Below, one piece after another: positions 5,717-6,377 of a DNA stretch of 6,377 bases; position 1 is the first letter of the stretch, and every line of letters starts with the position of its first letter. The notes under the pieces are model-generated. The model was not told the DNA's origin, searched no databases, and was given only the letters and a program-made list of their open reading frames with translations. The position numbers and the translations under genes are program-made. The DNA comes from a virus (lineage: Duplodnaviria; Heunggongvirae; Uroviricota; Caudoviricetes): IMG/VR virus record IMGVR_UViG_2645727555_000011, one strand, 5' to 3'.

Positions 5717-6043
5717 TCATAACACCGTCGGACAACGCAAATCGTAAATCAGCACGGACACAGAAAACGGCAGTTCTCCCTGCACGAGGTCTTCCCGCTC
5801 AGCAAGATCCGGATTCCGGTACAGCATCCCGGTCAGTCGCATGGCAGCCCCCTTCATCCGGGTTAATGCCTCGCCCGGGATCAGCTCACCGTCCTCACTA
5901 ATCACTTTATCCCGGCTGCCCTGAATGTAGGCCAGCAGCACGGCGGTAGCCTGACGAACCTTGTCCATCAGCATGTCATCATCCGCGTCATGGTCAACAC
6001 GCAGATGTGCCTTGATCTCTTCCAGTGTCAGTAATGCCGTCAT
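5717..6043 (-). CDS. gp6-like head-tail connector protein (Phage_connect_1-like, SPP1 gp15 analogue)
   Basis: 108-aa ORF with N-terminus MTALLTLEEIKAHLRVDHDADDDMLMDKVRQATAVLLAYIQ, a characteristic opening (L-x-E-x-K-x-H-L-R-V-D, acidic run, helical) of gp6-like connector/DNA-packaging proteins. First gene of the neck cassette. Confidence 0.82.
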   Translation of the reverse strand: MTALLTLEEIKAHLRVDHDADDDMLMDKVRQATAVLLAYIQGSRDKVISEDGELIPGEALTRMKGAAMRLTGMLYRNPDLAEREDLVQGELPFSVSVLIYDLRCPTVL

Positions 6044-6377
6044 TTTCCGCCTCCTGCATCCCGTCCCCGTTTGGCAGCCAGCGTCCAGCCAGATGCATGC
6101 GCATCCCCCGGTTTATCGGCGGTCATACTGTTGCAGTGCCACAGCGAGCCCCCCCACGTCACCGTATCGCCGGGGTGGTAGGTTTCACCGGCTCTGAACA
6201 CACCGCGGTAGAGCATCACCGGCAGGGAAAATGTTTTTTCCGTACGCTGGCCACTGCTGTGCCGGATCACCACAGAGAACAACCGCTCCCCCGTCATACT
6301 GACGTCAATATCCGCCACCCCGTCAACCAGGCATTCCCATCCCCGCATCCCGTGCGTTTTTTCATACGCCCGCCAGA
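6040..6377 (-). CDS. Hypothetical phage protein, at least 102 aa; frame stays open to the right window edge so the true start may lie outside. C-terminal half has a carbohydrate-binding-module-like motif
   Basis: Track ORF 6040..6348; I read the same frame open upstream of the ATG through 6375 with no stop. Stop overlaps the gp6-like start (ATGA), so it is co-translated with the neck genes. Motif YRGVFRAGETYHPGDTVTWGGSLWHCNSMTADKPGDAHASGWTL resembles the aromatic/Gly-Asp pattern of CBM5/12-type binding domains. Confidence 0.5.
   Translation of the reverse strand, partial: WRAYEKTHGMRGWECLVDGVADIDVSMTGERLFSVVIRHSSGQRTEKTFSLPVMLYRGVFRAGETYHPGDTVTWGGSLWHCNSMTADKPGDAHASGWTLAAKRGRDAGGGK

Follow-up and report, generated by a model that had tools for sequence, protein, structure and literature searches.

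The locus considered here raises the question of what kind of protein ends at the edge of a phage contig, directly upstream of a head-tail connector gene. The window, the whole 6,377-nucleotide (nt) stretch of IMG/VR virus record IMGVR_UViG_2645727555_000011 (Caudoviricetes), carried all of its genes on the minus strand and formed a standard siphophage neck-tail block. At its right end a reading frame (6040–6377) stayed open to the edge. An earlier note, made from the letters of the DNA, had described this frame as a small open reading frame (ORF) with a motif of the carbohydrate-binding module (CBM) 5/12 type, coupled to the connector gene and foreign to the usual cassette. The frame comprised 111 sense codons up to the edge and was closed by TGA at 6042–6040, and the quoted peptide, ..AGETYHPGDTVTWGGSLWHCNSMTADKPG....SGW.., was found at residues 62–97 of the fragment (window about 6085–6192). 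The description as a small ORF did not hold. A start at the ATG at 6348 would make the ORF 102 aa long, but this ATG was internal to a longer gene that is cut by the window and has its true start outside. The protein encoded between the portal and connector genes is named X here, and the window contained the 3' end of its gene, the last 111 codons and the stop. X is a fibre-like protein of HK97-type head modules that is widespread, mis-annotated, and so far uncharacterised. Its preferred reading, held at a probability of roughly 45%, is an external accessory fibre at the portal vertex, on the neck or the head, with its C-terminal knob distal. The conservation of the C-terminal codons and their ratio of non-synonymous to synonymous polymorphism (pN/pS, 0.10–0.19 among E. 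coli alleles) indicate that the frame is a real coding sequence, and a chance motif or non-coding reading was rejected on these grounds.

The extent of X was obtained from close relatives. The end of the window was 97.8% identical in DNA to Enterobacteria phage PPyecE_EH1910, the best phage record by megablast, and about 97% identical to many phages converting to Shiga toxin (Stx) 1a. The best complete E. coli genome was 99.1% identical to the window and had the portal–X arrangement of PPyecE_EH1910. In that phage the frame was part of a 407-aa X (L001:7341-8564), as it was in locus L010, and in other relatives it was part of an 859–861-aa portal–X fusion. The window fragment corresponded to the last ~110 residues of X. 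Complete X proteins from 103 IMG/VR contigs (L011–L113) were 245, 299, 353, 407, 461, 515, and 569 aa long, that is, 245+54n, which bore out the suggestion of the earlier note that the frame might be the C-terminus of a larger protein. X matched phrog_16748, phrog_1289, and phrog_2271 with E-values of 1e-65 to 1e-76. Neither NCBIfam nor the Pfam release used contained a family for X, and X alone gave no portal-domain match in Pfam or NCBIfam. A very recent Pfam family, PF28083, may already include part of X or of the portal tail; it was precomputed on some fused proteins (P0122, P0128, P0160, and others) and was absent from the Pfam release used. The head module of PPyecE_EH1910 was ordered TerS, TerL, a prohead-protease/major-capsid fusion, a 73-aa ORF, portal, X, and connector, and the gene upstream of X encoded a 454-aa HK97-type portal (PF04860, 6.5e-81; TIGR01537, 2.1e-106). 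The 73-aa hypothetical ORF between the protease–capsid fusion and the portal was conserved (L001:9871-10092, L002:8531-8752; in Proteus, L009:4419-4640) and overlapped the portal start by 55 nt.

X was composed of three parts. The N-terminal amphipathic helix of about 50 residues was followed in E. coli by a stalk of 54-aa tandem repeats, present in one to seven or more copies, in which each repeat consisted of two 'IPVPxDG-turn plus helix' halves (consensus IPxPxDG). At the DNA level the repeat period was 162 nt, and PPyecE_EH1910 (L001:7810-8348) had 3.3 copies that were 95% identical. This 162-nt repeat was a frequent break point of short-read assemblies, and many database entries were 'partial' proteins. 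The last ~140 residues were predicted by AlphaFold2 to form an all-beta domain, in which two CBM5/12-like modules were arranged around a four-strand sheet with a predicted local distance difference test (pLDDT) score above 90. The model of X showed long helices and then this confident beta domain. The stalk was acidic, with a net charge of −17, and the C-terminal domain was neutral.

The window cut the C-terminal domain within module 1, the first strands of which lay beyond the edge. The end of module 1, ..WRAYEKTHGMRGWECLVDG, occupied positions 6319–6377 (alignment, hhalign, and AlphaFold2 strands of pLDDT above 90). The middle beta-sheet, VADIDVSMTGERLFSVVIRHSSGQRTEKTFSLPVML, was located at 6211–6318, corresponding to strands 154–193 of P0001 in AlphaFold2 model m792951ba2d7f (pLDDT 90–94). 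Module 2, YRGVFRAGETYHPGDTVTWGGSLWHCNSMTADKPGDAHASGWTLAAK, which contains the motif of the earlier note, occupied 6070–6210 and was assigned by Pfam PF02839 and Foldseek, with a pN/pS of 0.10–0.14. Module 1, ..SFPRGTYATHLGGFWRAYEKTHGMRGWECLV, aligned in register with module 2 (hhalign P = 0.002; controls 0.12 and 0.33). Two nearly invariant cysteines were found in parallel motifs, W-E-C in module 1 (6334–6336) and W-H-C in module 2 (6133–6135), and their placement suggests a disulfide or metal site bridging both CBM-like modules. Weak tblastn matches to module 2, with 38–43% identity over ~58 residues, were also obtained from the crAss-like gut phages cr1_1, cr55_1, and cr50_1 (NC_055873.1, NC_055869.1, and NC_055868.1).

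The resemblance of the C-terminal domain to CBM5/12 was supported by the family and by local superposition. The window fragment matched Pfam CBM_5_12 (PF02839) over residues 61–86 with an E-value of 2.1e-4 and 21.7 bits, and 31 of 34 homologues matched at E ≤ 0.01, the best at 1.6e-7. Two distant collagen-bearing members exceeded the gathering threshold of 26.2 bits, with 30.4 and 27.4 bits. X shared the spacing Y-x-x-G-D-x-V-x-x-x-G-x-x-W...P-G...W and the small three-stranded beta fold of these modules, and a tandem pair of modules is also present in the Vibrio chitin oligosaccharide deacetylase. Foldseek superposed the module on the chitin-binding domain ChBD1 of Pyrococcus (2rts) with a root-mean-square deviation of 1.7–1.8 Å over 45 residues and a template modelling (TM) score of 0.55 for the target, and on that of Streptomyces ChiC (2d49) with a TM score of 0.68 for the target. 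Serratia marcescens ChiB was matched at 26% identity over 54 residues with probability 1.0, and identity in the local superpositions on chitin-binding modules was 24–27%. Further matches in the PDB were the Vibrio deacetylase, Moritella Chi60, and an Anabaena injection-system baseplate protein, and, among phage fibres, tail-fibre components of 7-7-1, Milano, and A-1(L). The matches among viral models (BFVD) were mostly phage proteins combining collagen with CBM5/12. The Foldseek E-values for the module were weak (at least 0.03) because the module is small. The structure prediction thus gave the compact beta fold for which the earlier note had proposed to look, and it superposed locally on chitin-binding domains.

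Membership in CBM5/12 was not established, however. Both the window fragment and the 407-aa relative (18.7 bits) scored below the gathering threshold. The canonical chitin-binding aromatic pair, Y-W in 2rts, was replaced by non-aromatic residues in X, with e-e in the consensus and S-M in the window, although other aromatic residues (Y, W, W-H, and W) were conserved in the alignment of the C-terminal domain. The corresponding exposed pair in ChiC is W-W. The whole 140-aa domain had no global match in the PDB by Foldseek (TM score of the query at most 0.30), and its extra sheet had no solved counterpart there. An AlphaFold2 model of the domain by itself (pLDDT 76.6, 11-sequence alignment) gave the same local matches and no global one. 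A family-profile sequence search of the PDB gave marginal CBM-type matches only, the best being the Anabaena injection-system baseplate protein at 0.011. The modules of X differ from known CBM5/12 modules in that the two share a single ~140-aa domain with an additional sheet, and in that this domain is carried by a fibre and not by an enzyme. On balance of the family matches and local superpositions against the sub-threshold score, the lost aromatic pair, and the missing global match, the predicted C-terminal domain is CBM5/12-like in fold, with a putative chitin or glycan ligand. The resemblance claimed in the earlier note therefore stood, while the assignment to the CBM5/12 family was not established.

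The earlier view of such a protein as unusual for this cassette was contradicted by its distribution. X was fixed in a large lineage of HK97-type head modules, and the block was carried by ~1,240 of 5,426 complete E. coli genomes, with up to eight copies per genome. The profile of the C-terminal domain matched 7,576 cluster representatives (clusters at 50% identity) at E ≤ 1e-3, 3,382 at E ≤ 1e-10, and 556 at E ≤ 1e-30, and the full domain was present in more than 550 clusters. Relatives of X were also found in Salmonella, Klebsiella, Burkholderiaceae, and rhizobia. X was located between portal and connector in Proteus, a metagenomic phage, Pseudomonas phage PAJU2, Rhizobium phage RHph_X2_26, and EBPR siphovirus 3, which is every locus with upstream genes called or annotated. 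In the Caballeronia locus X overlapped the connector start, and no portal gene was called upstream. Four-nucleotide overlaps were kept in four of six distant loci: Proteus, PAJU2, and the metagenomic phage had one at either end of X, and Caballeronia had one where X meets the connector. A literature search on portal, collagen, head or neck fibre, and carbohydrate-binding terms found no paper on X.

The three parts of X were conserved very differently. Between E. coli and Proteus, the metagenomic phage, or Caballeronia, the C-terminal domain was 53–58% identical, the connector was 30–33% identical, and the N-terminus of X was not alignable. In the comparison of E. coli with Proteus or the metagenomic phage, identity was 46–57% for the capsid fusion, including the major capsid protein, and for the portal. 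The conservation of the C-terminal domain was therefore on a par with that of the capsid and portal proteins and far above that of the connector. The stalk varied freely in type and length among members, from ~50 to more than 700 residues. The PAJU2 protein had P-x-P-x-DG-x-S-V-T-x-DDV-helix repeats as in E. coli, the RHph_X2_26 homologue had ~290 residues of coiled-coil-type helix, and Pfam Collagen (PF01391) matched four of 34 members, in addition to the Gly-X-Y stalks of P0296 and P0345.

The coupling of the frame to the connector gene, as claimed in the earlier note, was confirmed. The coupling signal (6040–6055) consisted of AGGAGG at 6055–6050, a 6-nt spacer, and an ATGA at 6043–6040, in which the X stop TGA (6042–6040) overlaps the connector ATG (6043–6041). 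The AGGAGG lay inside the last codons of X, which encode ..DAGGGK. The same ATGA junction was found in the relatives and in the Proteus, Caballeronia, metagenome, and Pseudomonas loci. In PPyecE_EH1910 the ATG of X likewise overlapped the portal stop as ATGA, and through these overlaps the portal, X, and the connector are made in step. Both ends of X (6040–6048 and L001:8558-8566) shared the junction GAAAATGAC, an ATGA overlap preceded by GAAA, which could be a common coupling or re-initiation context or a product of chance.

Whether X was separate from the portal or fused to it in E. coli was set by a run of G 11 nt upstream of its ATG (L001:8575-8590). With five G, the sequence ..TTC AGG GGG ATA CTG MGA AAA TGA ended the portal and left X its own ATG, where M is C in PPyecE_EH1910 and A in the closest complete genome. 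With six G, ..RGDTEKMTERELS.. joined both genes into one protein of 859–861 aa. The AGGGGG run was the only Shine-Dalgarno-like element of X and is probably its Shine-Dalgarno sequence. The G5, split state was found in 61 and the G6, fused state in 42 of the 103 IMG/VR contigs, and G5 in about two thirds of haplotypes. The window stopped short of this junction, and the complete genome closest to it was split. Phages BP-4795 and Lys8385Vzw had the split form, and phages 2851 and phi330 had G6. The fusion was seen elsewhere as well: its NCBI cluster had 6,387 members, phrog_2271 was a fusion model of 859 positions treated as one family, and a divergent 1,237-aa portal–X fusion (P0254) was found. 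In RefSeq, the intact 859–861-aa proteins were named 'phage portal protein', while the Prokaryotic Genome Annotation Pipeline (PGAP) marked the 2,585-nt G5 versions 'frameshifted'.

The split form appears to be ancestral and the fusion derived, because the distant relatives were all split, the M-x-ERELS start of X was conserved, and most haplotypes were G5. The fused form is nevertheless not junk. In fused alleles X was intact, with the same spectrum of repeat numbers as in split alleles, and the pN/pS of the C-terminal domain was alike in both (0.17 against 0.19). Two propagating phages also carry G6: phage 2851, known to propagate, integrates at sbcB (PMC4159516), and phi330 forms plaques at 1e9 plaque-forming units/ml (PMC12502783). 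The earlier note had named the C-terminus of a well-known head protein as an outcome that would speak against its proposal. This applied in part, since X forms the portal C-terminus in ~40% of E. coli alleles, but the fusion is derived and the domain lies outside the portal fold. A fast phase-variation switch between G5 and G6 was considered and rejected as the main pattern. The state of the run was mostly linked to lineage, only three of 49 haplotypes were mixed, and the three single G5 contigs in these could be errors.

In the phi330 deposit (L115, PV189401.1, 702-3444), a manually assembled Sanger sequence, X was divided into ORFs of 387 and 100 aa. It was considered as a natural X knock-out and discarded, the C-terminus of its portal being out of frame as well, and the extra frameshifts are probably sequencing errors. 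Real frameshifts would mean that plaques can form without the X knob.

In the reading of X as an external accessory fibre, the N-terminus would be anchored at or near the portal vertex and the protein would be trimeric, since collagen and coiled coil imply trimers. The ligand of the knob would be widely conserved and would most likely be a glycan, or else a conserved part of the phage. Its role would be a loose adherence that aids adsorption or retention, as proposed for the phi29 head fibres, SPP1 gp12, T4 Hoc, and neck fibres. A knob conserved like the capsid and portal proteins is, as far as conservation can tell, not a host-range determinant, and its ligand would be common to many hosts or a phage part. 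Phage phi330, an X carrier, uses OmpC as its receptor through a J-type central fibre (PMC12502783), which argues against X as the primary receptor binder.

In function, X would be closest to neck and head fibres, the latter represented by phi29 gp8.5 and SPP1 gp12. Of the neck fibres, T4 fibritin (wac) and the gp82–gp81–gp80 fibre of cyanophage A-1(L) are trimeric and have their N-terminus anchored at the neck; the helical stalk of fibritin is segmented, and the wac gene adjoins neck genes, as X does. The A-1(L) neck fibre is tipped by a carbohydrate-binding module, which gp80 places distally as proposed for X (PMC10966104). These fibres had no detectable sequence similarity to X, T4 and A-1(L) are myophages unlike the phages carrying X, and a portal fusion is known for X and for neither of these fibres. 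The collagen-plus-CBM5/12 tail-fibre proteins of uncultured phages in BFVD and the fibre components of the Agrobacterium phages 7-7-1 and Milano shared the domain combination and local fold of X. They are larger and encoded in tail or baseplate modules, whereas X is fixed in the head-neck module with a tip conserved across hosts.

Several points weigh against the external fibre. The trimeric state is proposed from the collagen and coiled-coil content of the stalk, and the sub-threshold PF02839 score and the loss of the canonical aromatic pair make the proposed glycan binding less secure. The literature search yielded no proteomic, microscopic, or binding data on X in virions. The mass spectrometry in the phi330 paper covers podophages only, and its supplement contains no protein list (PMC12502783); the PAJU2 record marks only three major proteins as structural, and the FSL SP-016 paper contains no proteomics. 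The most awkward point is the fusion itself. The portal C-terminus faces the capsid interior in the structures of SPP1, P22, T4, and HK97, and X was fused to it in 42 of the 103 contigs and in the viable phages 2851 and phi330. This suggests that the N-terminus of X is at the portal crown, inside the head.

The same observation carries the alternative in which X is an internal head protein on the portal crown, placed like the P22 portal barrel and possibly ejected with the DNA, its tip binding periplasmic peptidoglycan. This alternative is unlikely but has substantial points in its favour. In-frame fusion to an interior-facing terminus is common, is seen in viable phages, and recurs in the divergent 1,237-aa protein; coding constraint is equal in fused and split alleles. 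The X gene occupies the slot of SPP1 gp7 and Mu F, next after the portal gene, with which it is coupled, and the natural fusions suggest that X is associated with the portal as well. SPP1 gp7 is an internal, DNA-binding protein. A C-terminal domain as conserved as the major capsid and portal proteins would also agree with a universal ligand, for instance peptidoglycan, or with a partner inside the phage. Against this, X gave no match to the Phage_Mu_F domain (PF04233) in Pfam, NCBIfam, or PHROGs, and differs from gp7 and Mu F in being fibrous and acidic. The charge of the stalk would be unfavourable beside packed DNA, and its length is free to vary from ~50 to more than 700 residues. The structural neighbours of X were all external fibres, and to our knowledge phage collagen or coiled-coil stalks and CBM5/12-like knobs are known on external fibres only. 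The fused alleles retained the Shine-Dalgarno sequence and ATG of X, so free X may still be made from them, and the prohead protease could trim an internal part.

A more elaborate form of the internal placement takes the G run as setting how X is tethered, and must be considered a long shot. Free X made from G5 alleles would dock on the portal, while G6 alleles would place a covalent fibre of 250–780 residues on all twelve portal subunits; this fibre, of collagen or coiled coil and with a CBM5/12-like tip, would be stored in the capsid on the portal axis and would leave through the tail to bind peptidoglycan. Mixtures of free X and fusion could arise if ribosomes slip on the G run (site CAGGGGGAT). 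If this tethering were true, X would be an ejection or pilot protein of a new kind among siphophages.

The possibility that X is a capsid-wide decoration fibre, bound at hexamer or trimer sites like SPP1 gp12 or phi29 gp8.5, is improbable. The architecture agrees, as gp12 is a collagen-like trimer and gp8.5 a supercoiled repeating helix-turn-helix, and decoration fibres of this kind are reviewed as trimeric aids to carbohydrate-mediated adhesion (PMC7602432). The gene of X is also located within the head module, and its C-terminal domain is as conserved as the major capsid protein. However, gp8.5 and gp12 bind capsomers over the whole head and are encoded beside the capsid gene, unlike X, which is coupled on both sides to neck proteins of 12 copies and not to the major capsid protein; this coupling argues for a low copy number of X. 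A portal fusion would abolish decoration of the whole capsid, yet fused alleles persist. Neither gp8.5 nor gp12 has a CBM5/12-like knob or homology to X, and known decoration proteins resembled X neither in sequence nor in global fold.

It is very improbable that the X region is merely the C-terminal part of an 860-aa portal, with the split versions as frameshifted pseudogenes: the RefSeq names, the PGAP label, and the single phrog_2271 family agree with this, but in every distant relative examined X is separate and starts from an ATG of its own, the M-x-ERELS start has been kept, split contigs and haplotypes are in the majority and include BP-4795 and Lys8385Vzw, X has no portal domain, and 148 of the 150 best representatives were 136–552 aa long with the domain at the extreme C-terminus, too short for an added portal.

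The other genes of the window were assigned by Pfam and followed X in the order expected of the block. The gp6-like head-tail connector, or adaptor (5717–6043), matched Phage_connect_1 with an E-value of 6.3e-8 and 33.4 bits (cut-off 21.2). It was followed by a head-closure protein (5356–5706), an HK97 gp10-like protein (4913–5359), a gp17-like tail completion protein (4572–4916), the major tail protein (3789–4505), a tail assembly chaperone (3409–3783), and protein T (3104–3385), with the tape measure gene next. Residues ~149–233 of the major tail protein formed a C-terminal immunoglobulin (Ig)-like domain (Ig_2, 1.2e-7; I-set, 6.6e-7), which is a candidate for a second weak carbohydrate-adhesion module of the same virion. 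The chaperone ORF ended with ..GCC AGA AAA AAG TAG (3409–3430), in which A_AAA_AAG is a canonical −1 slippery heptamer just before the stop, and the −1 frame continued into the Phage_tail_T ORF (3104–3385). From this arrangement the junction is taken to be a programmed frameshift of the lambda G/GT type.

X is a routine component of the head-neck module of long-tailed lambdoid prophages in pathogenic E. coli, among which are Stx1- and Stx2c-converting phages. In the databases it is labelled 'portal protein', 'frameshifted portal pseudogene', 'head-tail connector, partial', or 'hypothetical'. Calls of prophage intactness are therefore misled, and PGAP calls the ancestral split form a pseudogene. 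The portal-fusion polymorphism is unusual, and the viable natural fusions indicate that an HK97-type portal tolerates a C-terminal addition of 400 residues, which is relevant to portal biology and to display or cargo engineering. If X is an adhesive fibre, it would be a second device of Stx phages for contact with the host or the environment, with possible effects on adsorption, on how phages are retained in mucus or biofilm, and on the spread of the toxin genes.

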